NCBI GenBank assembly: GCA_036846345.1
Contig: DAIUCD010000001.1
Span: 330,363-394,362, forward strand
Direction: 5' to 3'
Length of the DNA: 64,000 bases
DNA from: Spirochaetota bacterium
GTDB taxonomy: Bacteria; Spirochaetota; UBA4802; JAGODF01
A program made the position numbers and the translations under genes. Below the pieces are notes generated by a model. It did no database searches and was not told the origin of the DNA. It was given only the letters and a program-made list of their open reading frames with translations. Shown here piece after piece: positions 19,157-51,848 of the stretch. Position 1 is the first letter of the stretch, and each line of letters starts with the position of its first letter.

Positions 19157-19747
19157 ATGAAATCATTGAGGCCGGTGGTTCTGATGCTTTTATTGGCGGG
19201 TGCCTGTTCCGCTATAGGGTGTGCAACGAGCGGTATCCCCAGCTGCCTGGAAATATCTCCTCCCGAAATCAGCATGACCGGGGAGAAAACGGTCATCGAG
19301 CGTCAGATCGTGGGGGATTACCGGGAGCTTGAGAAGGATGCCTGGATCATCTCCTCTGTGAAAACCAATTCCGGAAAGGGCAAGGGGATCTATGAGAAGG
19401 ACAAGGTGCTCTTCAAGGCCATGAAGATACGGGATGATCTCCGTGACCGGATACGGGTTTATAAAAAAGAGGGAGTTGTCGGTGAGGGGAATGACGGCTA
19501 CCTCAAATATATTGGTACGCCCAGGTACAGCAAGGATAAAAAGCTGAAGGGGAAACTGGATGCCGTTGTCAAGCAGGAGAATGAGGCCCGTAAAATGATC
19601 TTTGTCAGAACCCTGACAAAATCGACTGGTAAGCCATCGGAAAAGGATATAGCCGCCTTTGGTGTGAAGTTCGCTGAGGAGCAGAGGGCTGTTGCCGAAA
19701 AAAATGACTGGATTCAGGATACTTCAGGTAAATGGGAAAGAAAATAA
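19157..19747 (+). CDS. DUF1318 (YdbL-like) lipoprotein
   Basis: Lipobox-like AIGC; KKEGVVGEGNDGYL, V..EN..R..I, F..EQR......WIQ..SGKW are DUF1318-type signatures. ATG at 19157. Confidence 0.8.
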   Translation: MKSLRPVVLMLLLAGACSAIGCATSGIPSCLEISPPEISMTGEKTVIERQIVGDYRELEKDAWIISSVKTNSGKGKGIYEKDKVLFKAMKIRDDLRDRIRVYKKEGVVGEGNDGYLKYIGTPRYSKDKKLKGKLDAVVKQENEARKMIFVRTLTKSTGKPSEKDIAAFGVKFAEEQRAVAEKNDWIQDTSGKWERK

Positions 19748-22700
19748 TGAAACCGAGAACCGTAAGAAGAGCCCTCTTTGCGATTTTACTGATATCTTCC
19801 GTTTTCCTTCCCTCCTGTGAGGACAAGAGCGCCAAAGAGGTGGAGTTCAATTACAGCAAGATATTGCGGAAGGAATACAAGTACAATGTAGGAAAGGTAG
19901 TGCCGGTTACGATCGAGCAGTCTACGGAAATCGACGGGACTGTAACGGCGGATGCCGAATATCTCTATTTTTCTTCGGATCGGGACAACGGCAACTTCGA
20001 CATCTACCTGCGTTCCCTTAAGGATATTACAACGGTTAGAATAACCAGACATCCTTCCAAAGACACGGCTCCGGCCATTTCGCCAAACGGTAAATATCTT
20101 GCCTTTGTTTCGCAAAGGGAAGATCCCGAGGGGGATATCTATGTTGTAAGGGTCAAACCCAAGAAGCTTATAGCGAGTGCTGCGAAATCCATTGCCGATC
20201 TCCCCTCCCTGGACGACAAAGCACGGAATCTGACGCAGTTCCAGGATCCTGCGACCAAGACCGTCCGCATCATCAAGGACAGCTCTCCCTGCTGGTCTCC
20301 TGACGGCGACTGGATCGCCTTTTCCTCGACCCGGGGAAATGGTTTGGAGAACATATGGGTGATGGACCGAAAGGGAAACGATAAAATCCAGATCACGAAA
20401 AAAGGGGGGATGTATCCCCGTTTCTCCGAGGATGGGAAATCCATCATCTACATATCCTACACGGATAAGGGCAGCAATGGGGATGTATATATTGTCGACT
20501 TTAAAACACGGAGGGAGCGTAGAATCACCAATACGAGCGCTATCGAACTGTATCCGTCCTTTATGAAAAACAGCCACGAAATCGTCTATACCCTTATCGA
20601 CCGGGACACCAATGCGGACGGTAAGATCGATCTCAAGGACAACTCCATCCTGTACTACAGAAATCTTAAAACAGGTTTGGAATATCCCCTGACGGTGTAC
20701 TCGAGCTCCTCCTTCGGAGCCAAATGGATCCCCGCCTTTAAGTCTGTGGACAAGGAGTATGATGGAACTCTTCTTTATTCAGATATGATGGGACAGAACA
20801 TCAATATCAATATCATCCCGGAGTACGGCATCATCCCGAAAAAGCGAAATGCCCTCCAGCAGTATATGCTGGCAGAAAAATATATCAAGGAACAGGATGA
20901 CATAGAGAAGTATGTTATGTGCCTGGAACGGGTATACAGTTTCTTCGGTACCCGGAAGGATACTCAGTCCATTATTTTTGTATCCAAGGCACTTATGGAG
21001 GCAGCCAGGCTGTACCATGAATACGGTTATAAAAAGGATGCGGAACGCCTTCATAGGCTTGTTAAATCCCTTTCGCCGGAAAAGAATGACTTTAGGAATA
21101 TCGCAGGCCGTTACCTAGATAAAATCCTTTCCGGAAGATCCGGCAGTGCGGTTCTTCTGGGGGCCATCGGTGATCTTGAGAAGGATACCAAGAGGAAAGA
21201 ATTTCTCCCCTACATGATGGAACAGCTTGGGGATGATTATCTTAACAGCAAAAAAACCGCTGAGGCTCTGAAATGGTACAGAACCGTTGCTGAGAGGCAC
21301 ACGAAATTCGACCGGATCAGGTATGTAGAATACAAAATAGGCGCTCTCTCCTTCCGCAGTGTTCGGGATGAGATTCCGCAGGCCTATCTGAACGTTCTTG
21401 GTTCTGAGTTTGTTTATCTTAAGAACGATACGCTTAAAAACATCATCGATGTCTTCAGCAAAGAGAAGGATCTCAAACTTCAGATAAGGGTTGCTGATAA
21501 ACACCTTAAAAGATTCAAGGACAACAAGTATCTTCCCGGTATTCTCGAATATATTCTCGGAAACGCCTACTATCGCAGCATTGATGTCAAAAATTCCCTG
21601 GAGCATCTTCAGAAATGCCTTAAGCTTGTGAATAAATCCGATCTCACTTTCTACAAGGCCAACAGGCTATTGGGTAAGATCGCAGAAAAGATGAACAGGC
21701 CTGAGGAGATGGAGAGATATTATTACGAGCTCAGTAGTAATTATCAGCTTTACTGGCAGCAGCCCGATTTTCCCCGGGTTCTTATCAAACTTATTTCCCA
21801 CTACGAGAAGCTGGGGGAAAATCTGCGGGGAGCCGGCAGGATTGGAGATGCCGTCAGCCTCTATCAGAAATATGTGGGTATTATCACTTACGTCCATCTG
21901 TTGAAAAAGTATGAGGATATCTATAATGAATACGGTTCCCGGGCACATGTTCTCTATGTCGACACCGCTGCGGAGGGTCGCGGGAACGCCTATAACCGCC
22001 TGAAAAAACTTGAGGATAAGTATATCAAGAGGCTTCCCATTGCCAGGCTGGATTTCGACAAGGCCCATCTCTACGGTCTCGCTTATATCTACTCGAAGAT
22101 GGGGCTGACCTATGACCGGGGGCAGTCCCTGGTGGGAAATCTGAGCGGAGGTCTCGTCGCAGGAGATCTGGAGAACATGCTGAAATGCTTTTATCAGTCC
22201 GTAGAGCAGATCGATTGGGCCCTTTTTATGGACGATACCTATGTGGATCCTTATCTGCTTAAGGGATGGGTCTTCCAGTATGTAGATCTCAAGCGTAAAG
22301 AGGACCAACAAGAAACGGGAGGGAAAAAGGAAGGCGTGATCGGGGATGTGTTCCCAAAATACCTCTGGGAGAGAAACATCGGGATTTATGAAAAAGCTCT
22401 GGGCATCAACGATGAAAAAAAGTATCCGGAAGTGGAGGGCAATCTTCATCTGAACATAGGTAACACCTATTATCTTCTTTCCAATTATCCCAGGGCATTG
22501 CGTCATTATGAGGATGTGCTCAAGTACAAGCTCCATTTCAATACGGAGATCGAGGAGGCGATATATCGCTTCCATCTGGGTTTCTGCTACTGGCAGAACG
22601 ACGAGATAGAAAAGGCCCGGGATGAGATGAACAGGACATTGGGAATCTATCAGCGTCTATCCGCCAAAGAGGGGGCTTCCAAGTATAAGCTGCAGATCTA

Positions 22701-32326: not shown

Positions 32327-32676
32327 TGGAGACGGCGGGAGTCGAACCCGCGTCCTACAACACACCCCTATGGCCTCTACATGCTTATCTCATTCCTTTG
32401 GTTTTAAGCCCCTCGACCGGGAATGAGAACCGTTCTCAGGGCCTGGTTCCCTTTGGTTTCGCTCATGTTCCGGGAACAGGAACCTTGGCTATCCTCTGTA
32501 TTTTACGCCTTCAGGCACCCCAGAGGAGCAAGCCTCCTGAAGACGCCAGCCGCTTTTAAGCAGCTAGTGCAAATTCGTTGTTTGCGTTTAATTTAGTTCC
32601 GCCATTTTTTACGAGATGACGGCGCTCGACATGCCACCATAGACGCATCATTGCAGTCGAAACCTGGATCGTCCCC
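32327..32676 (-). ncRNA. ssrA: tmRNA (SsrA), tag peptide ANNEFALAA
   Basis: 5' GGGGACG pairs with 3' CGTCTCC-A with a G3.U wobble; T-arm GCGGG-TTCGACT-CCCGC; tag reading frame GCA AAC AAC GAA TTT GCA CTA GCT GCT TAA at 32585-32556; terminal CCA not encoded. Confidence 0.97.
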
Positions 32677-37812: not shown

Positions 37813-40542
37813 GTGATTATGAGGACGATGAAGGATTTGATCTTTATCCCCGGAGGGGATGCACAGCCGACGGTTTCCCAGCTGGGTGGTAAGGCGGGTA
37901 ATCTCGCCATACTGACGGCAAAGGGAATGCCGGTTCCCTCCTGGATGGCTCTCACAACGGCCTATTTCGAAGAGTTTATGGGGGAATCTCTCCCTTCCAT
38001 GGATCGATTGCTGGGGAGACCGATGAAGCAGGGAGATCTGGCCGGGCTGTCTAAAAAACTTATCAATATGATTGAGGGGAGACGTTTTTCCAAAAAGTTG
38101 AAGGAATTGATGGAATCCTCTCTCCGGGACCTCTTCGGCTCAATGGAACAACGATACTTTTCCATACGATCCTCAGCGGTTGACGAGGATTCCCGAAGTC
38201 ATTCCTTTGCCGGCCAGATGGAGAGTTTTCTCTATGTTCCCTTTGACAGGGGATTCTACGAGATCGTTCGAAAGTGTTTCATTTCGGCCTATGCAGAGCG
38301 TGTTCTTTCCTACCGGTTTCATGCACGTCTTCCCCTCAAGGGGGTCAGGCCCGCCGTTATTGTTCAGGAGATGATTTTTGGGGATGTCTCCGGTGTTCTG
38401 TTTACCGGGAATCCCCTGAATAACAATACCGACGAGATCCTCATCAATGCCACTTATGGTATTGGGGAGGGAATTGTGTCTGGTGAGCTGGATACCGACC
38501 TCTGGGTGGTTAATGAGAAAAATGAGATCGTTTCAAAGAAGATTGCAGAAAAGCTCGAAATGATAATCTTCGATGAGGTAAACAGACGGGGAACAAAAAA
38601 GGTATCCGTAGAAACGGCGAGGATTGTTGCTGAATGTATGTCCGAAGAAACCGTAAAACTGCTGGCTGCCCGGGGCAGGGAGATAGAACGGATTTTCGGG
38701 TTCATTCCGCAGGATATCGAATGGTGTTTCCGGGAAGGTGAGCTCTTCATACTCCAATCGAGGCCGGTGACCATCCTCAGCCATGTAAACAAGTCCGAAT
38801 ACCGGACGATCTTTGACAATTCCAATATCATCGAAAGCTTTTCCGGTGTAACGAGTCCCCTTACCTTTTCCTTTGCCAGTACGGTTTACGATACCGTTTA
38901 CCGGCAGTTCTTCAACATAATGGGGACTCCTCAGAAGCAAATTGACAGCATGGCAGAGGTGTTCCGCAACATGCTGGCGTATATCAACGGGAGAGTCTAT
39001 TACAATCTCAACAGCTGGTATACCTGTCTTCAGCTGCTGCCCGGTTACAATTTCAACCGCAAATTCATGGAAAACATGATGGGGGTCAAGAGTTCTGCGA
39101 ATATTGAGATGGAGGAAAAGCTATCGGCTGCAAGAAGGTTTTTTGTGGAACTTCCCAAACTGCTGGGAGGGGTGGCGAGAATCCTGTTCAGTTTTCTTCT
39201 CCTGAAGAAGAAGCGGACCAAGTTTATTGAAAACTTCAACAGGGTGACCGTTCCTTATCTGGATGAAAAATTTGAGAATTACAACAATCGGGAACTGCTC
39301 AATCTCTATCAGCACTTTGTGGAGAATATTCTCAAGGACTGGAAGGCTCCCATCATAAATGACTTTTACACCATGATCTTCTATGGTCTTTTAAGCGGCA
39401 TGATCAAAAAAATCAATCTTCCCGACAATGCGAATCTGCAGAACAATCTTCTCAGCGGTGAGGGTGATATGGAGAGCACGAAACCCACCCGGGATATCAT
39501 CACCATGGCCAACTGGATCAGAGAACAGAAGGCGCTTATCGATCTATTTGCCCGGGAAAGAGAGGATAGGCTTGAGAAGCTGATTCTTCATGGGGAGGAT
39601 GAGGCCTTGGGCGATGTCCGGGGACTCATAAAAGAATACCTGTCCCGATGGGGTTTCCGCTGCATGAATGAGTTGAAACTCGAGGAATCCTCGCTCAAGG
39701 AGAATCCCCGCTTTCTTTTTACCACCCTTAAAAACTATCTCAGGAAGGAAGCGATTGATCTAGGGATGATGGAAAGGAGGGAGAGAGAAATACGGGCTGA
39801 AGCGGAAAAAATCCTGTACCGGCATGTTAAAGGATTCAGAGGTCTCCTGATGAGAATGATTCTGAGAAATGCCAGGAGCGCCATTAAAAACCGGGAGGAG
39901 CTGCGATTCATGCGGACCAAAATTTTCGGCATCATTCGCAATATGTTCAACGCCATGGGTCGAAATTTCTGCCGGGACGGATTGATAAGGGATGCCTCGG
40001 ATGTTTTCTATATGCATGTCCATGAGCTCTTTGAGTTTGTGGAGGGCCGTTCTCTCAATACGGGGATCATCAGGGACATCGTCAAGCTTCGCAGGCGGGA
40101 ATGCGAGGCGCATAAGACTCTCGAAACCCCCGAGCGGATGTATTTCTTTGGGGATATATACCGAAATAATTACGTGGAGATATTGACTGATGAAATGACT
40201 GAGAACGGAGAGGAAACCGAATCAAATAATACCTTCAGGGGAGTTCCCTGCAGCCCCGGTGAGGTGGAAGGTCTGGTCAAGATCGTGTTGATGCCGGAGG
40301 ATGCTGATCTGAACGGAGAAATTCTTGTGACCAAGCGTACGGATCCTGGATGGGTTCCCCTTTTCCCATCAGTCAGCGGTATCGTCATTGAGAGGGGGAG
40401 CGTCCTGTCGCACTCAGCCGTTGTAGCCAGGGAGATGGGGATCCCTACGGTTGTGGGTCTTCGGGGCATTACCGAAAAATTGAAAAATAATGACAAAATA
40501 CGGATCAACGGTACAACGGGTCTGGTGGAAAAAATCGTATAA
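37813..40542 (+). CDS. PEP/pyruvate-binding dikinase-like protein with rifampin-phosphotransferase domain order
   Basis: LGGKAGNL, IRSSAVDEDS..SFAGQMES, VQEMI, GIGEGIVSG, PQDIEW..LQSRPVT; central WGFRCMNEL; C-terminal swivel GSVLSHSAVVAREMGIP. Confidence 0.9.
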   Translation: MIMRTMKDLIFIPGGDAQPTVSQLGGKAGNLAILTAKGMPVPSWMALTTAYFEEFMGESLPSMDRLLGRPMKQGDLAGLSKKLINMIEGRRFSKKLKELMESSLRDLFGSMEQRYFSIRSSAVDEDSRSHSFAGQMESFLYVPFDRGFYEIVRKCFISAYAERVLSYRFHARLPLKGVRPAVIVQEMIFGDVSGVLFTGNPLNNNTDEILINATYGIGEGIVSGELDTDLWVVNEKNEIVSKKIAEKLEMIIFDEVNRRGTKKVSVETARIVAECMSEETVKLLAARGREIERIFGFIPQDIEWCFREGELFILQSRPVTILSHVNKSEYRTIFDNSNIIESFSGVTSPLTFSFASTVYDTVYRQFFNIMGTPQKQIDSMAEVFRNMLAYINGRVYYNLNSWYTCLQLLPGYNFNRKFMENMMGVKSSANIEMEEKLSAARRFFVELPKLLGGVARILFSFLLLKKKRTKFIENFNRVTVPYLDEKFENYNNRELLNLYQHFVENILKDWKAPIINDFYTMIFYGLLSGMIKKINLPDNANLQNNLLSGEGDMESTKPTRDIITMANWIREQKALIDLFAREREDRLEKLILHGEDEALGDVRGLIKEYLSRWGFRCMNELKLEESSLKENPRFLFTTLKNYLRKEAIDLGMMERREREIRAEAEKILYRHVKGFRGLLMRMILRNARSAIKNREELRFMRTKIFGIIRNMFNAMGRNFCRDGLIRDASDVFYMHVHELFEFVEGRSLNTGIIRDIVKLRRRECEAHKTLETPERMYFFGDIYRNNYVEILTDEMTENGEETESNNTFRGVPCSPGEVEGLVKIVLMPEDADLNGEILVTKRTDPGWVPLFPSVSGIVIERGSVLSHSAVVAREMGIPTVVGLRGITEKLKNNDKIRINGTTGLVEKIV

Positions 40543-40760: not shown

Positions 40761-42047
40761 ATGCAGAATCATGATGATTTGTCCATCGACCTGGAGAGAT
40801 ATGAAGAGCTTTCCCCGTCTTTTATAAAAAAACTCAGCGGAGAGAAGGTTCTCTCTGTGGATATTCTGAATCAGAGCGGTCAGGTACTCTTCAAATCCGG
40901 TCAGCCCATATCGAGCGATGAACTGGAGGAAAGGATTACAGAAGGCTCCCGGTTTTATATACCCCGCCCCACCACACGCGAAGGGACTTACGAGCATGAG
41001 ATCATCCCCAAACAGAAACTTCAGGAACTGGCGGAGGATACGGCACGGCTCTACTCCGATGTTCGGAAAAAGGGGGTCATGTCGCATGATCAGTACATCA
41101 ATTCCCATCGTCAGCTTGCGGATATTCTGAAGGGATTTAAGAAGGAGGATCGTTTCGGGGGAATATTAGGTCTTCTCAAGGAGATACAGGATTTCGATTA
41201 TTACACTTATGTCCACTCGGTCAATGTCAGCATGCTCGCCATGACCTACGAATATAAGGTATCCTATAAGATGGAGAGCATCCGCAACATGGCCATGGCG
41301 GGATATCTTCATGACATTGGCAAACTTCGGATACCCTCGGAGGTTTTAGACAAGCCGGGACCTCTCACGCGAAAGGAACACACCATGATGCTGGAGCATA
41401 CGAGGGAGGGGTATCGGATACTGGATGCGGTGGATAAAAGTGCCGGTGTCAAGCTCGTGAACGACAGTATCAAGCACGGTGCCCTCTTTCATCACAGAAA
41501 GTATCGTATTTCAGGATATCCCAACCGCAAGAGCCGGGACAAACGAAGCGAGCAGTTTTACTCCCAGCTCCCTGTAGATGTCCGCATGCTGGGACTTTTT
41601 GATATATATGATGCCGTAACCACCGCGACACCCTATCGCAAGGCATGCGCACCGGATGAGGCGCTTCGGTATATACTCAATATCTCGAACTATTATTTTC
41701 ATATCAGCGATATCAACCTTTTCCTTAAAACCATGGCCCTTTCCCTGAACAGGGGGCAGCATTTCATAAGGGAGGGGGATTTTGTCGTTTTGGAGGCGGA
41801 AAACACCTTCCTCGATGGTCAGAGCAAGGTCAGTTACGAATTCGCGAGGGTAGAGGAAAATTTCCGGGGCAAACCGGTAAATCCGAGGGTCGCCATCTTT
41901 TTCAATATGAGCAAGAATAAAAAGGTCCATCCCATCACCGTGGATCTGCGATATGATCATCACAGAAGCATTGTGCGAATCATCAACGATGAGCGGATGA
42001 AGAAGCTTGTACGATCGCTTTATATCTCCCAACAGGGTAACGGGTAA
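40761..42047 (+). CDS. HD-GYP domain protein (cyclic-dinucleotide phosphodiesterase candidate)
   Basis: YTYVHSVNV, LHDIGK, HTREG, HHRK...GYP, DIYDA.T..PYRK. Confidence 0.88.
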   Translation: MQNHDDLSIDLERYEELSPSFIKKLSGEKVLSVDILNQSGQVLFKSGQPISSDELEERITEGSRFYIPRPTTREGTYEHEIIPKQKLQELAEDTARLYSDVRKKGVMSHDQYINSHRQLADILKGFKKEDRFGGILGLLKEIQDFDYYTYVHSVNVSMLAMTYEYKVSYKMESIRNMAMAGYLHDIGKLRIPSEVLDKPGPLTRKEHTMMLEHTREGYRILDAVDKSAGVKLVNDSIKHGALFHHRKYRISGYPNRKSRDKRSEQFYSQLPVDVRMLGLFDIYDAVTTATPYRKACAPDEALRYILNISNYYFHISDINLFLKTMALSLNRGQHFIREGDFVVLEAENTFLDGQSKVSYEFARVEENFRGKPVNPRVAIFFNMSKNKKVHPITVDLRYDHHRSIVRIINDERMKKLVRSLYISQQGNG

Positions 42048-42415
42048 TGATACTTTTTATTAACGAGGATTCATCCAGAACGGAAAGCATTCAGCATATC
42101 CTGGCACCACTGGGGCAGGAGGTGCTTCAGGCGGAGGACATCAACCATATACCCTTGGACGAAGGCTCTCCTTCCATTGATCTCGTCCTGATCAGTATAG
42201 ATGCGCAGAACATCGATCCCCTGTTTGTTATAGAAAAGATTCGTAACAGGGAAATGTTCTCCCGAACTCCCATTCTTGTGGTTACCGCTCTCAGCAGTCC
42301 CCTCTATTTTATCGATACCTTCGAAAAGGGCGCGTCGGATTATTTCGTCCTCGGCGTGGACGATACGGCCCTTCTTGGAAAAGCCCTTAAGCTGCTTGAC
42401 AAGAGGGATCACTGA
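42047..42415 (+). CDS. Atypical single-domain receiver protein
   Basis: Receiver fold (DLVLISI, TPILVVTA, GASDYF), but phospho-Asp position is Ser and the conserved Lys-Pro is absent. TAATG overlap with the HD-GYP gene. Confidence 0.7.
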   Translation: MILFINEDSSRTESIQHILAPLGQEVLQAEDINHIPLDEGSPSIDLVLISIDAQNIDPLFVIEKIRNREMFSRTPILVVTALSSPLYFIDTFEKGASDYFVLGVDDTALLGKALKLLDKRDH

Positions 42416-42514
42416 TAAGGAAATAGTGCCCGTAGATACCTCTTCTCACGGAAAACGGATTTTACGAACCCGGAAATGGCCGGGGAAATATCACGTTAAT
42501 ACGGATTAACCTGC

Positions 42515-43954
42515 ATGGGCGGCACTTTTATCATAGGTCTTGTCTTTCTGGGGTACATGGTGATTCTCGTCATCATCGGACTCATGGCTTCAGCAAAGAC
42601 CAACACAGAAGAAGACTTTTTTCTGGGGGGGCGCAGGATAGGTACCTGGGTGACTGCGGTCTCCTCGACGGCAAGCTCGGAAAGCGGATGGGTGATCTTG
42701 GGAATCATCGGCCTGGTATATAAGGAGGGCCTTTCTTCGATATGGTTCATGCCCGGTTGTTTATTGGGGTACTGGTTCAACTGGAGATTCATCGCTCCGA
42801 AGCTGAGGGTCTATTCAAAAAACACTGCGGCCATAACCCTGCCGGATCTTTTCGAGGAGGAGCTGGGGGACAGCGGGCATTCGGTAAGAATGGTGTCCGT
42901 TTTTATCATCTTCGCTTCCATGATGGGATACGTAGCGGCCCAGTTTACAGCGGCGGCTAAGGCCTTTCATTCCACTTTCTCCCTTGACTATAATGTTAGC
43001 ATTCTCATCGGAGCGACCTTGGTGATACTCTACACCTTGATGGGCGGTTACAGGGCGGTTTCCTGGACGGATCTGTTTCAGGGGCTTCTGATGGTTTTTG
43101 CACTTGTCATTCTGCCGGTCGTTGCGGTCAATCATGTCGGCGGGATAGGAGCCCTCTGGAATAAACTGGCCCCCAGGGGTGAATTCCTCTCCCTCGTCAA
43201 GGGGAACGCGTTCTGGGGTTCCGTAGGGGCAGTGCTGGGCCTTTTGGGGATTGGTTTTGGGTATCCAGGCCAACCCCACGTTCTGCAGCGTTTCATGGCG
43301 GCGGAAGACGACAGGGTCATTCAGCGGGGCAAGTATATAGCCCTCAGCTGGGGAGCCCTGGTCTATACCGGATCCATCATACTGGGACTGGCGGGGCGTG
43401 TCCTTATTCCGGAAATTGCCGATCCGGAGCATGTCTTTCCCGAGCTCTCCAAAAAGCTGCTCCATCCCGCCCTGTCCGGGCTGATGCTCTCGGCGGTCAT
43501 GGCCTCCATCATGTCCACGGCGGATTCTCAGCTGCTTGTGGCGGCCTCCTCGGTGGTAAGGGATGTGTATGAAAAGATGATAGGCCGCAGGGTCGGGGAA
43601 AAGAAACTGGTCCTGTTGAGCCGCCTGGCGGTTCTTGTCCTCGGTTTGCTTTCCATTATTGTGGCCATCACTGATATCAGGGCTGTTTTCTGGTTCGTTC
43701 TCTTCGCATGGGCCGGACTGGGAGCCGGGTTTGGACCGCTGGTCATTCTGATCCTTCGGGATTACAGATTCCAGCCCCGGCAGGCCATAACAGGGATGCT
43801 ACTGGGATTCTCTCTCACGATTATCTGGAAGGTATCCGGGATGTCTGCCTATCTCTATGAGCTGGTCCCATCCTTCCTATGCTCTCTTTTGTATCTCCGG
43901 GTTGTCGGGAAAAAAACCGTGCAGCAGGATCGCGGGCAGGTAATTTTAGATTGA
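42515..43954 (+). CDS. putP: Sodium/proline (SSS family) symporter
   Basis: FFLGGRRIG, SSESGW, YTLMGGYRAVSWTD, LGIGFGYPGQPHVLQRFMA, MSTADSQLL, AWAGLGAGFGP. Substrate not certain. Confidence 0.85.
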   Translation: MGGTFIIGLVFLGYMVILVIIGLMASAKTNTEEDFFLGGRRIGTWVTAVSSTASSESGWVILGIIGLVYKEGLSSIWFMPGCLLGYWFNWRFIAPKLRVYSKNTAAITLPDLFEEELGDSGHSVRMVSVFIIFASMMGYVAAQFTAAAKAFHSTFSLDYNVSILIGATLVILYTLMGGYRAVSWTDLFQGLLMVFALVILPVVAVNHVGGIGALWNKLAPRGEFLSLVKGNAFWGSVGAVLGLLGIGFGYPGQPHVLQRFMAAEDDRVIQRGKYIALSWGALVYTGSIILGLAGRVLIPEIADPEHVFPELSKKLLHPALSGLMLSAVMASIMSTADSQLLVAASSVVRDVYEKMIGRRVGEKKLVLLSRLAVLVLGLLSIIVAITDIRAVFWFVLFAWAGLGAGFGPLVILILRDYRFQPRQAITGMLLGFSLTIIWKVSGMSAYLYELVPSFLCSLLYLRVVGKKTVQQDRGQVILD

Positions 43955-44030
43955 CATAATCACCTTCTGGCAGTAGCACATTTCGGTTCGGAGAGATAAA
44001 CAATGAACCGATTTAAGTCGCTCATGATTC

Positions 44031-44762
44031 ATGGGTGATCCCTGTATGAGAACCAGACTTCGCCTGAATATCCTGCCTCAGCCTGACGATGTTACCTGCG
44101 GGCCTACCTGTCTGCATGCTGTATACCGTTATTATGGGGACAATATATCTCTCGATAAGGTGATATCTGAAGTGCGGGGTGTTGAAGGGGGGGGGACTCT
44201 GGCGGTTTTTCTTGGATGCCATGCCCTCTCCAGGGGATATCGCGCGAAAATTTACACCTACAACCTGCAGGTCTTTGATCCCTCCTGGTTTAGGGATTCC
44301 TCGATCGATATCGTCGAGAGGTTGAAAAGTCAGATGCAGCATAAACGTGTAAAAAAACTTCATGAGGCCTCGGAGGCCTACAGTGAATTTCTTTCACGGG
44401 GAGGCAAAATACAGTTTGAGGACCTCACGCCGGGACTGATCAGGCGTTACCTGAAGAAGTCAGTTCCTGTACTGACAGGACTCAGTGCCACCTACCTTTA
44501 CAGGACGGCCCGTGAGTACGGGGCGGCCTGTGATTATGACGATGTGCGGGGCGATCCTTCGGGGCATTTCGTTGTTCTCTGCGGATATGATCAGACGGAA
44601 AGGGAGGTGCTTGTGGCCGACCCCATGCTGCCCAATCCTGTGTCGAAAAGCCATCAGTATCTCGTCAGCATCAATCGCCTGATCTGCTCAATACTGCTAG
44701 GGATTCTCACCTATGATGCCAACCTGCTGATCATCGAGGAGAACCCGAAGGGGACAAAATAA
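44031..44762 (+). CDS. Papain-like C39-family peptidase
   Basis: QPDDVTCGPTCL (Q-x4-C type), GHFVVLCGYD, VADP: Cys-His-Asp triad. No signal peptide. Confidence 0.85.
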   Translation: MGDPCMRTRLRLNILPQPDDVTCGPTCLHAVYRYYGDNISLDKVISEVRGVEGGGTLAVFLGCHALSRGYRAKIYTYNLQVFDPSWFRDSSIDIVERLKSQMQHKRVKKLHEASEAYSEFLSRGGKIQFEDLTPGLIRRYLKKSVPVLTGLSATYLYRTAREYGAACDYDDVRGDPSGHFVVLCGYDQTEREVLVADPMLPNPVSKSHQYLVSINRLICSILLGILTYDANLLIIEENPKGTK

Positions 44763-44763
44763 A

Positions 44764-46230
44764 ATGCGAACCCTCTTCATCGTCAACAATCCGAAAAACT
44801 GGGACTTGGACGTTCCCGGTATCGAGGTTATCTCCGCCAAGGCTTATCTGACCAGGAGTGAATTCAGCGACCTTCGGGCGGTTAAGGTTTTCAACCTGTG
44901 CAAATCCTACCGCTATCAGAGCAACGGCTATTACGTCTCTCTCCTTGCGGCGGCGCGCGGTCACAAGCCCATACCCAGCGTCATGACCATCCAGGATATG
45001 AAATCCCAGACGATGATACGCTTTGTCTCCGAGGACCTGGATGATCTGATACAAAAGAGCCTGGCTCCCCTGCAGTCGGGGAATTTTACCCTGAGCATCT
45101 ATTTCGGGCAAAACCTGGCCAAGCGTTATCAAAACTTGAGCCAGCATCTCTTCAAACTCTTTCCGGCGCCCTGTCTGAGGGCCATCTTCGTCTTTAACAA
45201 AAAATGGCAGCTCCAGAATATCGAACCCATCGCCGCTGATGATATACCCAAAGATCACTATTATTTTGTGGAAGAGGCGGCCAAGGAGTATTTCATGGGG
45301 AAGGTTACATCTGTTCCCCGCAAGTCCAATGCGCGTTATGATATGGCGATCCTATACAACCGGAACGATTTGACACCCCCCTCTGACGAGAAGTCCCTGC
45401 AGAAGTTCATGCGGGCGGCGGAGTCCGTTGGTTTCGACGTGGAGGTAATCGACAAGGATGATTACGGACGGATCGCCGAATTCGACGCCCTTTTCATTCG
45501 GGAAACGACCAGCGTAAATCATCACACCTACCGGTTTGCCCGCAGGGCAACGGCGGAGGGGCTTGTGGTCATCGATGATCCCGAATCGATACTGAAATGC
45601 ACAAACAAGGTCTATCTGGCGGAGATGCTGGACCGTTACAAGATCCCGGCTCCCAAAACCGTGATATTGCATAGGGACAATAAGGAGGAGGCCATCCGGG
45701 AGCTGGGGTTCCCCATCGTTCTTAAACAGCCCGACAGCTCCTTTTCTTTGGGGGTTGTTAAGGTGGATGACGAAGCGCAGTTTACCACCGAGGTGGACCG
45801 GCTTCTGGAAAAATCTGAGCTCATCATCGCCCAGGAATTCGTTCCCACTCCTTATGACTGGCGTGTGGGGATCATTGATCATCAGCCTCTCTATGTCTGC
45901 AAGTATTATATGGCCCGCAAACACTGGCAGATCGTGAAGAAGGAGGACGGAACGGGCAAGCTCCTTTACGGCAAGACGGATTCCTTCCCTGTGGAACAGG
46001 CTCCGGAAAAGGTGGTCCGTATAGCACAGAAGGCCGCCAATCTGATCGGTGATGGGTTGTACGGGGTGGACATCAAGGAGCTGGATGGGAAATTTTATGT
46101 AATCGAGATCAACGACAACCCCAGCATCGATCACTCCGTAGAGGATATGATCCTGAAGGATGAACTGTACCGGCGCATCATGCGGGTCTTCCTGAAGCGT
46201 ATAGAGCGGCGTAAAGAGGGACTTGTTTGA
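44764..46230 (+). CDS. RimK-family ATP-grasp ligase with N-terminal RLAN domain
   Basis: RLAN-type NLCKSYRYQSNGYYVSLLA.ARGH; ATP-grasp CTNKVYL, VLKQPDSSFSLGV, QEFVPT.YDWR, YGVDIKE..VIEINDNPSID. Confidence 0.9.
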   Translation: MRTLFIVNNPKNWDLDVPGIEVISAKAYLTRSEFSDLRAVKVFNLCKSYRYQSNGYYVSLLAAARGHKPIPSVMTIQDMKSQTMIRFVSEDLDDLIQKSLAPLQSGNFTLSIYFGQNLAKRYQNLSQHLFKLFPAPCLRAIFVFNKKWQLQNIEPIAADDIPKDHYYFVEEAAKEYFMGKVTSVPRKSNARYDMAILYNRNDLTPPSDEKSLQKFMRAAESVGFDVEVIDKDDYGRIAEFDALFIRETTSVNHHTYRFARRATAEGLVVIDDPESILKCTNKVYLAEMLDRYKIPAPKTVILHRDNKEEAIRELGFPIVLKQPDSSFSLGVVKVDDEAQFTTEVDRLLEKSELIIAQEFVPTPYDWRVGIIDHQPLYVCKYYMARKHWQIVKKEDGTGKLLYGKTDSFPVEQAPEKVVRIAQKAANLIGDGLYGVDIKELDGKFYVIEINDNPSIDHSVEDMILKDELYRRIMRVFLKRIERRKEGLV

Positions 46231-47480
46231 TGAGAGAACCTGAGAAACCCCTGCACCTCTTTGAGGGGTACGGGGTTGAGCTGGAATACATGATCGTTCA
46301 TGCTGACACCCTCAGGGTGATGCCTGTTGCCGATGAGGTACTTAAAGCTGAGGCTGGAATCATCACTAACGATGTGGAACGGGGGAGCATGGCCTGGTCC
46401 AATGAGCTGGTGCTGCATGTAATGGAGCTGAAGACCAACGGCCCCGCAGAGAATCTAAAATCCCTCCCGGAAAATTTTCTTGGAGAAATCCGATACATCA
46501 ACGGTCTGCTCAAAGCCTTTGACGGCATGCTGCTTCCGGGGGGGATGCATCCCCTGATGGACCCGCTCCAGGAAACACGTCTGTGGCCCCATGCAAATAG
46601 TGAGATCTATGAGAGTTATGACCGAATCTTCGGCTGTCGGGGTCATGGCTGGGCCAACCTGCAAAGTGTCCATCTAAACCTCCCCTTCTGCGGGGATGAG
46701 GAATTCGGAAAACTACATGCCGCCCTCCGAGTTATCCTCCCCATCCTGCCAGGACTGGCGGCCAGCACGCCGCTCATGGAGGGCCGTAAAGCCGGTTTCA
46801 TGGACACGCGGCTGGAGGTCTACCGGCTCAATCAGAAAAAAATCCCGGTGATAACAGGAGAGGTGATCCCTGAGGCGGTCTATACCAGGCGGGATTATGA
46901 GCGCTCGGTTTTAGAACCCATTGCCAGCGGCATTCAACCCTTTGATACTGAGGGAATCCTTGAAGCGGAATGGCTCAATTCTCGTGGGGCCATAGCACGT
47001 TTTGACCGGAACACCATCGAAATCCGGCTGATGGATATTCAGGAATGTCCTCTGGCAGACCTGGCGGTCATTACTGCGGTAGTGGCAGCGGCCAGGGCCC
47101 TGGTTTCAGGGCGATGGGTGGATATCCACTTACTTCAGCAGCAGTCCACTCGGGACTTGAAGCAGATTCTCCTCCAGGTCCTTAAGGAGGGGGAGGAGGC
47201 CCTCATTAAGGATAGGAACTATCTGAGGATGTTCGGACTTGAGGGCGAAAGAAGTCTCTCATGCAGGGACCTATGGGAACATCTGATCGGGGCACTCTTG
47301 ACGGATACAAGCGAAACGGACAGGGGTATCCTCAATGCCCTGAAGACTATTCTCCGTGAGGGCACGCTGGCGCGTAGAATTCTGCGTTCACTGGGGGATT
47401 CCTTCGGGACTCGGGATATCCATAGAGTTTATCGGCAGATGGGAGATTGCCTTAATCGGGGGGAGATGTTCGTTGGCTAA
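46230..47480 (+). CDS. Glutamate-cysteine ligase family 2 (GCS2/YbdK-like) carboxylate-amine ligase
   Basis: YGVELEYMIV, NELVLHVMELKT, GGMHP, SVHLNL, IEIRLMD. TGATG overlap with the upstream gene. Confidence 0.88.
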   Translation: MREPEKPLHLFEGYGVELEYMIVHADTLRVMPVADEVLKAEAGIITNDVERGSMAWSNELVLHVMELKTNGPAENLKSLPENFLGEIRYINGLLKAFDGMLLPGGMHPLMDPLQETRLWPHANSEIYESYDRIFGCRGHGWANLQSVHLNLPFCGDEEFGKLHAALRVILPILPGLAASTPLMEGRKAGFMDTRLEVYRLNQKKIPVITGEVIPEAVYTRRDYERSVLEPIASGIQPFDTEGILEAEWLNSRGAIARFDRNTIEIRLMDIQECPLADLAVITAVVAAARALVSGRWVDIHLLQQQSTRDLKQILLQVLKEGEEALIKDRNYLRMFGLEGERSLSCRDLWEHLIGALLTDTSETDRGILNALKTILREGTLARRILRSLGDSFGTRDIHRVYRQMGDCLNRGEMFVG

Positions 47481-48174
47481 GAAGGCTGGGCTGCTGATCA
47501 CCTGCGAACATGCTACAAACCATCTGCCTGGGGAATACTGTTTCCTCTTCCCGGACCTCTCTGTTCTGTCCACTCACAAGGGGTATGATCCGGGGGCCTT
47601 ATCAGCGGCGGAAGCTTTTGCCCGGTCACTGAGGGTACCGCTGATCTCTTCAGAGGTGACCCGCCTCCTTCTGGATCTCAACCGATCCCTGCACAACCGC
47701 ACACTCTTCAGTGTTTATTCCCGAGGGCTGACCAGGGAAAAACGGTCGGCACTTCTAGATCGGTATTATCATCCCTACAGAGCGAGGGTACTGGAAGAGA
47801 TGAACAAGATCCAGAATGAGGGACGGCCTGTCCTGCATCTTTCCGTTCACAGCTTTACTCCGGTTCTGGGCGGGGAGGTGAGAACGGCTGATCTGGGGCT
47901 TCTCTACGATCCCGCCAGGGAGTCTGAGAAGATCCTATGTCTCCGGTGGCAGTCTGAACTGAAAATACTTAACCCCCTTCTTCGAATACGAAGGAACTAC
48001 CCCTACAGGGGCCGGTCTGACGGCCTGACTGCATATTTCAGGAAAAGCTTTCATCAAAAAGAATACCAGGGGGTTGAGCTGGAGATCAACCAGTCACTTC
48101 TGGGAGACCAAAATCATTTTCCGGAGGAGATAAAGGGAATACTCATCCGCACACTGGAAAATCTTTTAAAATAA
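47473..48174 (+). CDS. N-formylglutamate amidohydrolase-like protein
   Basis: TTG start with GGGGAG SD; ITCEHA, GYDPGA, TRLLLDLNR, YYHPY, SVHSFTP, ELEINQ. Confidence 0.88.
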   Translation: MAKKAGLLITCEHATNHLPGEYCFLFPDLSVLSTHKGYDPGALSAAEAFARSLRVPLISSEVTRLLLDLNRSLHNRTLFSVYSRGLTREKRSALLDRYYHPYRARVLEEMNKIQNEGRPVLHLSVHSFTPVLGGEVRTADLGLLYDPARESEKILCLRWQSELKILNPLLRIRRNYPYRGRSDGLTAYFRKSFHQKEYQGVELEINQSLLGDQNHFPEEIKGILIRTLENLLK

Positions 48175-48204
48175 TCAAACGGAAATGGCAATCGATATTT
48201 TTTC

Positions 48205-48251
48205 TTGACAAAAGGGGACCCCCGGCAGATGATACCAGTTAACGTAAACTG
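48205..48251 (+). promoter_or_regulatory. Promoter TTGACA-N17-GATGAT plus palindromic operator CAGTTAACGTAAACTG
   Basis: -35 at 48205-48210; -10 at 48228-48233; near-perfect palindrome at 48236-48251 over the expected start site. Confidence 0.6.
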
Positions 48252-48343
48252 TAATCAAATATTTTTATATGTATATTTATTGCTGAGGCCAAACCGGAAG
48301 ACTCGACGGTCGCAGTCTCGGCAGAGAACAAGGAGGATAGAAA

Positions 48344-49981
48344 ATGAGCGAATTCAGAGAGATTACGATTGGTGGCCTGTTGAGGGAAACGGCCGCTAAA
48401 ATACCGGCCCATGAGGCCCTTGTATGCCCTGAATTTGATGTGAGAATGAACTACCAGGAATTTCTGGGTCATTGCGTAAAAGTGGCCAAGGGCTTTATGG
48501 CCCTGGGAATCAACAAAGGAGACCACGTCTCGGTATGGACAACCAATTTGCCGGAATGGGTGTACATGCAGTTCGGCCTCAGCATGATCGGCGCGGTGCT
48601 GGTTACGGTCAATACCAATTATAAATCCCACGAGCTGGAGTATATTCTGAAACAGTCGGACTCCACGACGCTGGTTCATATGCATGAGCACCGGGACACA
48701 AATTTCTACAATACGGTGTGTGAAGTCATCCCCGAGTTGAAGAATTCCAGGCCCGGTGATCTGAAAACGACAAAACTTCCCAGTCTGAAAAATGTGGTCT
48801 ACATAGGCAAGAGCAAGGATACTCCCGGCATGTTTGCCTTCGCGGATGTCGTGGCACTGGGTGATAAAATCTCAGACGGGGACCTGGCAGCGAGGGAAAA
48901 ATCCCTGAGTGTTCATGATCCAATCAACATGCAGTATACTTCGGGAACGACAGGATTTCCCAAGGGGGTCATGCTGACGCATTACAACATCGTCAATAAC
49001 GCCAGGATGGTGGGTGATGTCATGGGGATGACGGACAAGGATAAGCTCCTCATACAGGTGCCACTCTTCCACTGCTTCGGCTGCGTTATGAGTACGCTCA
49101 ACTCCGTGTATCATGGTTCCACCATGATCGTTCTGGAGGCTTTCGATCCTTTGAAGGCGCTTCAGGCTATCGACAAGGAAAAATGCACAGCCATCAATGG
49201 TGTGCCGACCATGTTCATCGCCATGCTGAATCATCCCGATTTCAGCAAATACGATACCAAATCCCTTCGGACCGGTATCATGGCCGGGGCCCCCTGTCCT
49301 GTGGAGGTCATGAACGAAGTGAGGGAAAAGATGCACTGTTCCGAGGTGGTCATCGCCTTCGGGCAGACGGAATGCTCACCCGTTATGACCATGACGCGGC
49401 GGGATGATCCGGTGGAATTGCGCGTTTCCACCGTGGGGAGGCTGCTCCCGGACATCGAAGGAAAGATTGTGGACCCGGATACCAACGAGGATGTGCCCGT
49501 TAACGTTCAGGGGGAGATCGTTACCCGGAGTTCCTGCGTGATGAAGGGGTATTACAAGATGCCGGAGGAAACCGCCAAGGCCATCGACAAGGATGGCTGG
49601 CTCCATACGGGCGACCTGGGGACTGTGGATGAAAACGGTTATTTCAAGGTGACCGGCCGGATCAAGGACATGATCATCCGCGGCGGGGAGAATATCTACC
49701 CCAGGGAGATCGAGGAATTCCTTCACAAAAATCCCAAGATCAATGACGTTCACGTCGTGGGCATCCCCGATAAGAAGTACGGGGAGCAGGTTCTTGCCGC
49801 CATTCAGCTTAAGGAAGGGGAAAAGTCCAGCGCTGAGGAGATGGTGGAATACTGTACGGGAAAAATCGCCCGGCATAAGATACCCCGCTACTGGGAGTTT
49901 GTGGCCGCCTATCCCATGACAGCCAGCGGAAAGGTACAGAAGTTCAAGCTCCGGGAGATGTTCGCTTCTAAGTATCAGTAA
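48344..49981 (+). CDS. AMP-binding acyl-CoA synthetase
   Basis: QYTSGTTGFPKG, PLFHCFG, FGQTE, GWLHTGDLG, GRIKDMIIRGGENIYP, TASGKVQKF. Confidence 0.95.
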   Translation: MSEFREITIGGLLRETAAKIPAHEALVCPEFDVRMNYQEFLGHCVKVAKGFMALGINKGDHVSVWTTNLPEWVYMQFGLSMIGAVLVTVNTNYKSHELEYILKQSDSTTLVHMHEHRDTNFYNTVCEVIPELKNSRPGDLKTTKLPSLKNVVYIGKSKDTPGMFAFADVVALGDKISDGDLAAREKSLSVHDPINMQYTSGTTGFPKGVMLTHYNIVNNARMVGDVMGMTDKDKLLIQVPLFHCFGCVMSTLNSVYHGSTMIVLEAFDPLKALQAIDKEKCTAINGVPTMFIAMLNHPDFSKYDTKSLRTGIMAGAPCPVEVMNEVREKMHCSEVVIAFGQTECSPVMTMTRRDDPVELRVSTVGRLLPDIEGKIVDPDTNEDVPVNVQGEIVTRSSCVMKGYYKMPEETAKAIDKDGWLHTGDLGTVDENGYFKVTGRIKDMIIRGGENIYPREIEEFLHKNPKINDVHVVGIPDKKYGEQVLAAIQLKEGEKSSAEEMVEYCTGKIARHKIPRYWEFVAAYPMTASGKVQKFKLREMFASKYQ

Positions 49982-50018
49982 TGGACAAGCAGCAATGATC
50001 GAACGTCAGGTACGATAG

Positions 50019-50423
50019 ATGGGCAAGAGCCGGGAATACGAGGAGGATCAGTTCATCTCCATCGGTGAGGTGGCAAAGACCGTCGAGATGAGCCTGCGGA
50101 CCATCCGTTATTATGAGGAGATTGGACTGCTCAACTCCGTCAAGCGTATTGAGGGTGGAAAGCGCGTCTATACCATGGAGGATGTGCGCCGATTGAAACT
50201 CATCAAGCGCCTCAAGATATTAGGACTTTCCCTTTCGGACATGGAGGAACTGGAGGATATCTGGTCCATACAGAAGTCCAACGATATCGTTCTGAATCGC
50301 CTTCTGGAGATACTGGACCGGCATCTGAAAAAGCTGGACGAAAGAATACGGGACCTGGAGATACTTCGAAACGAGATAACCGAGTATAAGAGCCGGATCA
50401 GGAAAAAGCTGAAATCCGTGTAA
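50019..50423 (+). CDS. MerR-family regulator (LiuR-like)
   Basis: SIGEVA......LRTIRYYEEIGLL, GKRVYT..D..RLKLIKRLK.LGLSL. Confidence 0.92.
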   Translation: MGKSREYEEDQFISIGEVAKTVEMSLRTIRYYEEIGLLNSVKRIEGGKRVYTMEDVRRLKLIKRLKILGLSLSDMEELEDIWSIQKSNDIVLNRLLEILDRHLKKLDERIRDLEILRNEITEYKSRIRKKLKSV

Positions 50424-50437
50424 TACTGCCATCGCTT

Positions 50438-50470
50438 GAAAAGCCCCTTAGAGAAGGGGCTTCCTTTTTC
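50438..50470. terminator. Terminator between convergent MerR and amidase genes
   Basis: AAGCCCCTT-AGAG-AAGGGGCTT followed by CCTTTTTC. Confidence 0.7.
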
Positions 50471-51848
50471 AGGGTCTGTAGTTCTTGAGAGAGGGATCAT
50501 AGATAGGAGCTATCTCCTTTCCGAGATGGTTGACCGGGAAACGGTATCCTCTCAGTCGGGAAGGCACCTTTTTGGCATAGGAGCTCTCGGGGTAGAAATG
50601 ATAGATCCGGGACAGATAGTAGTCGGAAGCGGCCTTGTCATTGAGTGTTCTGTATCCCCGGGAAAGAAACCAGTGTATCATCGGGGCCCGAGGGTCGGTG
50701 CGTCCCAGGGACAGGGCGGATTGGAGCAGCAGCAGACCCTGGCGTACGGTCTTTTTCTTTTTAATGAGTTTCTGTCCTCTCAGGATCATCCCGGCGTAAT
50801 CACCGGTCCGAATGTCCCGTGTAAAGACAGAGTAATAATAGGGACTGCTCTGATGACGGGCATTGACGACCCTGAAGCGAAGGGTATGAACGCCGGGAGG
50901 GAGTGTGGGGCCGTAATCGACCTGATAGAGGCCTGGGGAGAGTTTTCGGCAGGGAAACGGTATTTCGTCCAGGGAGGCCTCGATGGTTAGGAAATTATAG
51001 GATTCCGGCTCCATTCCGGTGTGAATGCGGAGGGCCAGGAGGGGTGATTCTTCAGCAAGGTGGTTTTTCTGGAAGCTCTCCCTTTTTATGGGTGAGGATA
51101 TCAGCACCTTGCCTGCCGGGACACCTCTTCGGAAATACTCTGCGATGGCCAGAAAGTAAGCCTCCGCCTCTCTCTGGTTATACTGCAGATCCTTAAGATG
51201 CAGTGTGTGCCGCTCGTCGGAAAAGAAACCGCCCTCCCCGATAAGGCCGGGACAAAGATTGCGAGTCTCCCTGAGAAGCTGTGTGCCTGTTTCCGTAAAT
51301 ACGGCCAGGTCCGATGTGACGTGCCCCCGCTCGTCCATGATTCTGTGAAATTCACCAAGAAGTAAAGAGGCCAAATCATAGCTTGCGGGATTGACCTCCC
51401 TGCTGCCCCAGATGAGGACCATGGGGTAATTTACCCTCTCGACTCTGCGGGCCGATCCGTTATGGTGAATGCTGATCAACAGATCAGGTTTAAAAAGCTG
51501 GGCTAGTTTGACCCGATCAGCCAGGGGCACATTTACGTCCTTGACCCGGGTGCACATCACCTTGACGCCGGCCCGGGTGAGCATGTCTGACAGATAGAGG
51601 GCTACACGCAGGTTGACCTCCTCCTCGCAGAGGCTTTCAGGACCGGTCCGGAAGCTATCCTCCCTGCAGCTTCCGCCATGACCCGCGTCCAGGAGAACTT
51701 TCTTTCCCTTGAGGAAAGGGGATCTCTCCAGAGAAACATCACCGGTATATTTATAACTGTTCTTTCTGCAGTTCAGGGACACCGTTAGTATGAGAAGCGA
51801 TAGACATACAAAGGCTTTACAGGGCATACCTTCCCTCCGCTCAGGCAA
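50469..51848 (-). CDS. N-acetylmuramoyl-L-alanine amidase (Amidase_3), probable lipoprotein
   Basis: Lipobox-like SLNC; LDAGHGG, EEEVNL, LADRV..A, ISIHHN, GEGGF. Confidence 0.9.
   Translation of the reverse strand: MPERREGMPCKAFVCLSLLILTVSLNCRKNSYKYTGDVSLERSPFLKGKKVLLDAGHGGSCREDSFRTGPESLCEEEVNLRVALYLSDMLTRAGVKVMCTRVKDVNVPLADRVKLAQLFKPDLLISIHHNGSARRVERVNYPMVLIWGSREVNPASYDLASLLLGEFHRIMDERGHVTSDLAVFTETGTQLLRETRNLCPGLIGEGGFFSDERHTLHLKDLQYNQREAEAYFLAIAEYFRRGVPAGKVLISSPIKRESFQKNHLAEESPLLALRIHTGMEPESYNFLTIEASLDEIPFPCRKLSPGLYQVDYGPTLPPGVHTLRFRVVNARHQSSPYYYSVFTRDIRTGDYAGMILRGQKLIKKKKTVRQGLLLLQSALSLGRTDPRAPMIHWFLSRGYRTLNDKAASDYYLSRIYHFYPESSYAKKVPSRLRGYRFPVNHLGKEIAPIYDPSLKNYRP

Follow-up and report, generated by a model that had tools for sequence, protein, structure and literature searches.

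The question raised by this locus is why two mechanistically different amide ligases and two hydrolases should be encoded side by side in four tightly packed genes, and what such a set of enzymes could make. The genes, designated g1 to g4, lie at positions 44,031–48,174 of a 64,000-nucleotide (nt) stretch of a Spirochaetota genome (contig DAIUCD010000001.1 of assembly GCA_036846345.1), called the window below, and are predicted to encode a C39-like peptidase, a ligase that joins an RLAN domain to a RimK-type ATP-grasp module, a GCS2-family ligase and an FGase-family amidohydrolase. An earlier description made from the letters of the window (the sequence-only reading) had put them forward as a self-contained four-gene system, and as the best candidate there for an undescribed one. 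Comparison with related loci shows that the cluster is widespread and has a core of three genes, for which we consider the synthesis and turnover of a free glutamyl-type peptide as a candidate function. The features of the cluster are as follows; aa denotes amino acids and ORF an open reading frame.

44031–44762, + strand: g1, predicted C39-like cysteine peptidase (243 aa; ORF call)
44764–46230, + strand: g2, predicted RLAN + RimK-type ATP-grasp amide ligase (488 aa; ORF call)
44836–45276, + strand: RLAN domain of g2 (residues 25–171; Pfam)
45343–46137, + strand: pre-ATP-grasp and ATP-grasp catalytic module of g2 (residues 194–458; match to TIGR00768, rimK_fam)
46230–47480, + strand: g3, predicted divergent GCS2-family carboxylate-amine ligase (416 aa from ATG)
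47473–48174, + strand: g4, predicted FGase-family (N-acyl-glutamate-type) metal amidohydrolase (233 aa; TTG start)

Conservation and layout of the cluster

One genome per species was scanned; at least 595 species carried a relative of the RLAN ligase, and 80 loci, from 80 species of about 13 phyla, were kept for neighbourhood counts. The counts were made by tblastn with the four window proteins, and the denominators are the loci with room for the partner in question. A g1 homologue stands directly upstream of the g2 homologue at 72 of 78 loci and a g3 homologue directly downstream of it at 64 of 69, but a g4 homologue follows g3 less regularly (41/57, 72%). Clustering of the flanking ORFs of at least 90 aa gave no other family at more than 10 of the 80 loci, antisense shadow ORFs aside. 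Because the adjacency of the first two partners is so regular, that of FGase less so, and nothing else is conserved, the core of the cluster is three genes (C39, RLAN-RimK and GCS2), and FGase is a frequent, non-universal fourth.

The claim of a self-contained four-gene system thus holds as far as a unit conserved in order and packing is concerned, with the three core genes adjacent at more than 90% of loci in many phyla, but has to be narrowed with respect to FGase. The median distances between aligned segments are 27 nt (g1/g2), 26 nt (g2/g3) and 14.5 nt (g3/g4), which leaves no real intergenic space, and the median identities to the window proteins are 58% for g1, 58% for g2, 49% for g3 and 45% for g4. 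No ORF of 20–89 aa is conserved within 1.2 kb on either side of the cluster at the more than 70 loci compared, which extends to other genomes the lack of a precursor-peptide ORF remarked on for the window. Together with the result for the longer flanking ORFs, this indicates that no carrier, precursor or target protein is linked to the cluster.

The loci come from Planctomycetota, Desulfobacterota, Nitrospirota, Gamma-, Beta- and Alphaproteobacteria, Myxococcota, Bacteroidota, Balneolaceae, Fibrobacterota, Verrucomicrobiota, Acidobacteriota, Spirochaetota (including relatives of Leptospira), Nitrospinota and Sumerlaeota; the cluster is also present in Legionella and Thiobacillus, and thousands of metagenome proteins are further carriers of the RLAN ligase. 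Relatives are nearly absent from viruses (4 in 2.9 million viral contigs). A role as an anti-phage defence system was considered and rejected on this count and for want of a meaningful PADLOC match.

In the window the layout can be read directly from the sequence, and it agrees with the four co-oriented genes and the three junctions of the sequence-only reading. The g1/g2 junction is TAA-A-ATG with a 1-nt gap; at the g2/g3 junction, TGATG, A46230 is common to the TGA stop of g2 and the ATG of g3 (1-nt overlap); and g3 and g4 overlap by 8 nt, with the TTG of g4 at 47473 and the TAA stop of g3 at 47478–47480. The start codon of g4 is thus TTG and not ATG, and a GGGGAG Shine-Dalgarno-like site stands ahead of it at 47460–47465. 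Identical metagenome contigs with separate gene calls give the same products of 243, 488, 416 and 233 aa. A sequence scan showed no terminator-like site exceeding background inside the cluster, an Rfam scan of 42000–50500 gave no riboswitch or other RNA element at E values up to 1, and rpsF is absent from the 64-kb window.

Family assignment of the four proteins

Membership was judged by curated thresholds, namely the gathering scores of Pfam and the equivalog and subfamily cut-offs of NCBIfam. The g1 product exceeds them for Peptidase_C39_2 (2e-11) and Peptidase_C39 (1e-6), and a profile built from its orthologues matches the C39 domains of ComA and PCAT1 among solved structures at 1e-5, a relationship seen only as a profile. 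Residues Q17, C23, H179 and D197, which make up the Gln/Cys/His/Asp catalytic set of C39 peptidases, are at least 97% conserved in 71 orthologues. With the catalytic Cys at residue 23 there is no room for a signal peptide, and g1 is predicted from its sequence to be a cytoplasmic C39-like (papain-fold) cysteine peptidase. Its true start may be the ATG at 44046 (Met6), since the alignments with homologues set in near residue 6 and GGGTGA stands 8 nt upstream. Stand-alone proteins of about 240 aa make up the g1 family, which equals the g2 family in size. The context of a C39 bacteriocin exporter is lacking, as g1 is itself stand-alone and neither an ABC transporter nor a small ORF is conserved nearby.

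The g2 product belongs to the RLAN-RimK family (PF14401 + PF08443), with 167.4 bits for RLAN at residues 25–171 (2e-49; cut-off 25) and 39.4 bits for the RimK ATP-grasp domain at residues 281–458 (6.5e-10; cut-off 21). It has at least 8000 homologues, with 54–68% identity across phyla (best 60–68%), and its identity to database proteins of other organisms does not exceed 68%. K321, D365/R367, D436, E448 and N450 are invariant among orthologues and E358 nearly so; the Q357-E358 pair is also in the conserved set. The alignment with LysX/RimK of T. thermophilus (3vpd) covers residues 258–460, and the best structural matches of the ATP-grasp module are LysX and ArgX (TMt 0.76–0.83). The scores against equivalog and subfamily models are 19.5 bits for RimK (NF007764, cut-off 331), 80.6 for the RimK subfamily (TIGR00768, 143.4), 81 for LysX (276), 22–44 for glutathione synthase (GshB, 272–408) and 19.7 for cyanophycin synthetase (CphA, 850). 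The MptN and CofF models, both of small-molecule Glu ligases, are also among the NCBIfam matches below cut-off.

The N-terminal part of g2 is matched less readily. PDB sequence matches start only at about residue 236, LysX and RimK match the ATP-grasp part only, and the PDB sequence search found no solved structure for RLAN (residues 25–171). In the AlphaFold2 (AF2) model of full-length g2 (predicted local distance difference test, pLDDT, 79.6), ArgX, LysX, RimK and Ddl are matched over about 300 columns and the N-terminal 190 residues remain unexplained. When residues 1–186 were modelled alone (pLDDT 87.3), the top 50 Foldseek matches in the PDB were all of the ATP-grasp fold, among them ArgX, LysX, synapsin, ITPK1, RimK, PsnB, Ddl and Asp1 kinase. 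The best E value was 5e-4 (ArgX), the query TM score was 0.5–0.59 (LysX 0.57–0.59) and identity was 5–11%. On the basis of this model RLAN is tentatively described as a truncated, catalytically degenerate ATP-grasp-like module. The idea that it is a duplicate of the ATP-grasp half of g2 still detectable by sequence was rejected, as hhalign gave a probability of 0.2% with only 61–76 aligned to 285–300. The RLAN family is compact, amounting to 777 clusters at 50% identity in a set of 1.84 billion representatives; the domain is nearly always N-terminal to RimK, and a minority of the proteins carry an extra N-terminal GNAT domain.

In the case of g3, superfamily membership is clear (GCS2, 7e-23, 81.8 bits, cut-off 21), and the profile search against solved structures gave only the plant glutamate-cysteine ligase (4e-3) and YbdK (0.018). 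E17, E19, E59, H63, E66, H107, H148, R252, R266 and E272 are conserved in 66 orthologues. The scores against the GshA-type glutamate-cysteine ligase models are 15.8–33.2 bits (cut-offs 249–427), and those against the YbdK models 39.1 bits (TIGR02050, cut-off 176.4) and 42.3 bits (NF010039, 371). The g4 product is a member of the FGase family (1e-22, 81.7 bits, cut-off 28.9), and its best solved relative is Atu2144 (2odf, 5e-21), an uncharacterised structural-genomics protein. E12-H13, H35, D39, H122, H126, E202 and E204 are present and conserved in orthologues. Against the HutG model TIGR02017 the score is 17.2 bits (cut-off 278.75), and the flanks contain no hut genes.

Overall, the catalytic and ligand residues of the four proteins are present and at least 97% conserved in 41–71 orthologues, in agreement with the intact motifs of the sequence-only reading. 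None of g1–g4 reaches the cut-off for RimK, GshA/GshB, YbdK or HutG, which indicates that the ligases are not the ordinary enzymes; on the question whether they serve S6 glutamylation or glutathione synthesis, the curated models for both are missed by a wide margin.

Possible product of the cluster and alternative explanations

GCS2 enzymes form amides by way of an acyl-phosphate, as a rule that of the Glu gamma-carboxylate. RimK-type ATP-grasp enzymes, of which RIMKLA/B are small-molecule Glu ligases, attach L-Glu to a protein, a cofactor or a small acid at a C-terminal carboxylate. The hydrolysis of N-acyl-L-glutamates by FGase enzymes is the formal reverse of the RimK-type step, and papain-fold Cys enzymes hydrolyse or transfer amides. 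By analogy with this chemistry, we give an even chance to the reading that the cluster is a cytoplasmic module that, independently of the ribosome, builds a free gamma/alpha-glutamyl-type peptide from amino acids and turns it over. The GCS2 ligase would activate a carboxylate, by analogy the Glu gamma-carboxylate, as the acyl-phosphate and couple it to a second amino acid at the latter's amine, giving an N-blocked starter of glutathione-like topology. RLAN-RimK would then activate the C-terminal alpha-carboxylate and add L-Glu or a similar residue, once or repeatedly, with the RLAN module as a docking or regulatory domain. The FGase-family enzyme would hydrolyse N-acyl-L-glutamates and so reverse the RLAN-RimK step, and the C39-like peptidase would hydrolyse or transfer the other amide. 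Since C39 is linked as strongly as the ligases, maturation or transpeptidation (as in phytochelatin synthase or BtrH), and not recycling alone, probably requires it.

A free peptide is favoured because no carrier or target is linked to the cluster and the sporadic neighbours are transporters and a member of the EgtC-type amidohydrolase family; the occasional MFS, GATase_4, PutP-like and CitMHS/DcuC neighbours, described below, point to small molecules. The other elements of the sequence-only reading, namely a glutamate-rich product, its identity as a polymer, osmolyte or tag, and cleavage of the ligase products by the hydrolases, are suggestions from family chemistry only. Several points weigh against a free peptide. 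No substrate specificity can be read from the sequences, and matches to characterised equivalogs all lie far below cut-off. The median cross-phylum identity of 58% for g1 and g2 is unusual for small-molecule enzymes and agrees better with a conserved macromolecular partner. The normal substrates of C39 peptidases are peptides or proteins, and the links to transporters, rare as they are with no more than 4 of 80 loci, could be due to chance. The GNAT fusion is of no help in deciding, because ribosomal proteins are acetylated by GNATs of the RimI/J/L type.

The same conservation of g1 and g2 suits the main alternative, which we consider distinctly less probable: a protein whose gene lies elsewhere, such as S6 or some other conserved protein, would be tagged reversibly. 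GCS2 would start an isopeptide or gamma-linked branch, RLAN-RimK would extend it as alpha-linked poly-Glu, the FGase-like enzyme would trim C-terminal Glu and the C39-like enzyme would remove the tag, so that the whole would be a bacterial counterpart of tubulin glutamylation by TTLL/CCP or of RimK/RimB. GCS2 belongs to the same ligase superfamily as PafA/Dop, the nearest solved ATP-grasp relatives of g2 modify proteins (ArgX and LysX act on LysW, RimK on S6) and C39 relatives cleave polypeptides. However, a target or carrier gene is linked at 0 of 80 loci, the RimK and LysX equivalogs are missed as given above (19.5 bits against 331 and 81 against 276), a conserved acidic C-terminus, a potential self-substrate, is present in none of g1–g4, and the occasional transporter and Ntn-hydrolase neighbours suit metabolites better. 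Somewhat less probable again is a system of two writers and two erasers for a branched or gamma-initiated alpha-polyglutamate, carried on a conserved protein or present as a free cyanophycin-like polymer. Chains would be started by GCS2, lengthened by RLAN-RimK, trimmed by the FGase-like enzyme and taken off at the root by the C39-like enzyme, and RLAN would be a pseudo-ATP-grasp domain on which the chain docks; if true, this would be a pan-bacterial counterpart of eukaryotic TTLL/CCP polyglutamylation. A bacterial precedent, both for tagging and for a ligase encoded together with an opposing hydrolase, is RimK of Pseudomonas, which is encoded and operates with an opposing protease, RimB (PMC10092738). 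The window resembles this pair in that g2 has a RimK-type catalytic module with all Mg/ATP residues and that ligase and opposing peptidase are encoded together, but differs from it in the 190-aa RLAN module, in a C39 cysteine peptidase in place of a retropepsin and in the second ligase, GCS2.

Two further explanations have less in their favour. Amino acids could be added at the C-terminus of a ribosomal peptide whose gene lies elsewhere, in the manner of LysW or the pearlins, with release of the product by C39, as in peptides made by the ribosome and modified after translation (RiPPs). C39 peptidases are typical cleavers of leaders and scaffolds, and LysX and ArgX, the best structural matches of the g2 ATP-grasp module, act on a carrier peptide; but the flanks hold no conserved small ORF, no LysW-like one is found at any locus, no lysine or arginine pathway genes are near, and the C39 domain has no ABC transporter as fusion or neighbour. 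To our knowledge, the gene for the peptide nearly always stays within the cluster in RiPP and carrier systems, and we regard this explanation as unlikely. Hardly credible is the chance adjacency of ordinary housekeeping enzymes for glutathione synthesis, S6 glutamylation and the hydrolysis of N-formylglutamate in the histidine pathway. The generic database names of the genes ('RimK family protein', 'glutamate-cysteine ligase family protein') could hint at such roles, but every curated equivalog or subfamily model is clearly missed, and adjacency and order kept at over 90% of loci across phyla are not explained by chance.

In relation to known systems, the cluster belongs to the RLAN/RimK-like family as a typical member and is not a new category. 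Iyer, Abhiman, Burroughs and Aravind reportedly defined this family by comparative genomics in 2009, together with a gene-neighbourhood context that may include the arrangement found here. Since the RLAN family came from such earlier work, is a curated Pfam family and is accompanied by the cluster in hundreds of genomes, 'undescribed system' was too strong. The statement that no biochemical characterisation of the neighbourhood was known fared better, as full-text literature searches found no experimental or biochemical study of it. The window protein g2 has the same RLAN + RimK architecture as the PF14401 family, with no material difference, and the window cluster is typical of the conserved C39/RLAN-RimK/GCS2(/FGase) neighbourhood in order, strand and tight packing. 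The present analysis adds the quantified three-plus-one conservation, the pattern of accessory genes and, from the model, the ATP-grasp-like prediction for RLAN.

Glutathionylspermidine synthetase/amidase is another precedent for a ligase encoded with an opposing hydrolase. The resemblance to the glutathione, phytochelatin and EgtA/EgtC (ergothioneine) systems is one of logic only. The window shares with glutathione and phytochelatin synthesis a GCS-type ligase, an ATP-grasp enzyme of the RimK/GshB clade and a papain-fold Cys enzyme, but meets no GshA, GshB or YbdK model, and the C39 fold is not that of the phytochelatin synthase family. As in ergothioneine synthesis, an EgtC-type GATase_4 occasionally joins the cluster, but EgtB and EgtD genes are absent. 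Cyanophycin synthetase and cyanophycinase likewise combine two mechanistically different ATP-dependent amide ligase activities with dedicated hydrolases, free of a template; in the window, however, the second ligase is GCS2 and not Mur-ligase-like, the activities reside on separate polypeptides and a polymer product is purely hypothetical.

If the product were identified, the gain would be either a widespread small peptide of a new kind (a thiol, an osmolyte or a storage compound) or a new protein modification of bacteria, and the RLAN domain would acquire a function. The cluster is small and self-contained, and is therefore an easy target for heterologous expression and mass spectrometry.

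Neighbouring genes, variant loci and other features

The genes that flank the cluster in the window were considered as parts of the system and rejected, since the PutP-like symporter and the acyl-CoA ligase are conserved at 0–1 of the 80 loci. The PutP-like Na+/solute symporter (42515–43954, +; 427 bits, equivalog cut-off 515.5) has its end 77 nt upstream of g1, and the interval contains no terminator-like site. It may be co-transcribed with the cluster in this genome, while its link to the cluster recurs at 0 of 80 other loci. On the other side, the best promoter-like match of the region, TTGACA-17-GATGAT at 48205–48233 (+), lies between g4 and the acyl-CoA ligase gene (48344–49981) and suggests that the latter is a transcription unit separate from the cluster.

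Among the related loci, stand-alone GATase_4 genes, encoding class-II amidotransferase-like Ntn hydrolases, adjoin the cluster in four cases, two of them without FGase, and MFS transporters adjoin it in three. The GATase_4 genes have the following positions in their own loci.

L007, 3757–4545: GATase_4 gene beside the cluster
L025, 1262–2119: GATase_4 gene beside the cluster
L026, 10433–11491: GATase_4 gene beside the cluster
L036, 5205–6095: GATase_4 gene beside the cluster

GATase_4 is the family of EgtC, a gamma-glutamyl amidohydrolase that partners the GCS2-like EgtA, and it may be a partial functional replacement of FGase where the latter is absent. At the loci without FGase the downstream genes are heterogeneous, and only GATase_4 recurs among them as a possible substitute. 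Legionella adelaidensis has the arrangement g2-g3-g4. In Gallionella and in a Verrucomicrobiota metagenome-assembled genome, g2 is flanked by ORFs without a Pfam match (L069, 445–1173; L031, 6342–7004 and 8510–9907), which may be alternative partners or spurious ORFs; those upstream of g2 were tried as divergent C39 proteins and rejected, as hhalign showed no relation.

Some RLAN-RimK proteins stand apart from the cluster. Paralogues with 40–48% identity occur alone, lacking the three partner genes, in P. aeruginosa and Azospirillum (44–47% identity for L084, 5908–7497, and L086, 5001–6410); the neighbours of the P. aeruginosa paralogue are an SDR oxidoreductase and a class I/II aminotransferase, with a Glu/Asp ABC transporter and ggt near. 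The GNAT-RLAN-RimK fusion (646 aa; L087, 3517–5457; L088, 3349–5289) has as neighbours a CitMHS/DcuC carboxylate transporter and a second GNAT gene, at loci without C39 or GCS2. Ngg is the dipeptide synthase (GNAT + ligase) of the NAGGN osmolyte pathway in S. meliloti and P. aeruginosa. The fusion variant (P0331) was considered as Ngg and set aside: tblastn of a plasmid collection gave 30 records, none from Sinorhizobium, in a collection where S. meliloti pSymB, the replicon that carries ngg, was expected but is not confirmed to be present. The 490-aa 'rimK' of Francisella, FTT0178c, was likewise rejected as a characterised member of the cluster; it adjoins an acetyltransferase gene (PMC2682660) and not C39 or GCS2, a judgement made by neighbourhood and not by sequence. 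Deletion of FTT0178c caused no attenuation in mice (PMC2675058).

Elsewhere in the window, upstream of the symporter, an HD_5 (HD-GYP-like) gene (40761–42047, +) overlaps with its stop the start of a weak receiver-domain ORF (42047–42415, +; 29 bits, cut-off 30.2) by 1 nt. Another gene of the cyclic-di-GMP signalling type encodes a 7TM-PAS-GAF-GGDEF protein (12751–15867, −). A 909-aa protein (37813–40542, +) combines PPDK_N with a PEP-utilizers swivel domain, without the TIM-barrel domain that binds phosphoenolpyruvate (PEP)/pyruvate, an architecture that in our view resembles rifampicin-phosphotransferase or PEP-synthase-like enzymes. An 1812-aa protein with a PD40 beta-propeller and many TPR repeats is encoded at 19732–25170 (+), and the gene for transfer-messenger RNA (tmRNA) at 32327–32676 (−) specifies the tag peptide ANNEFALAA.

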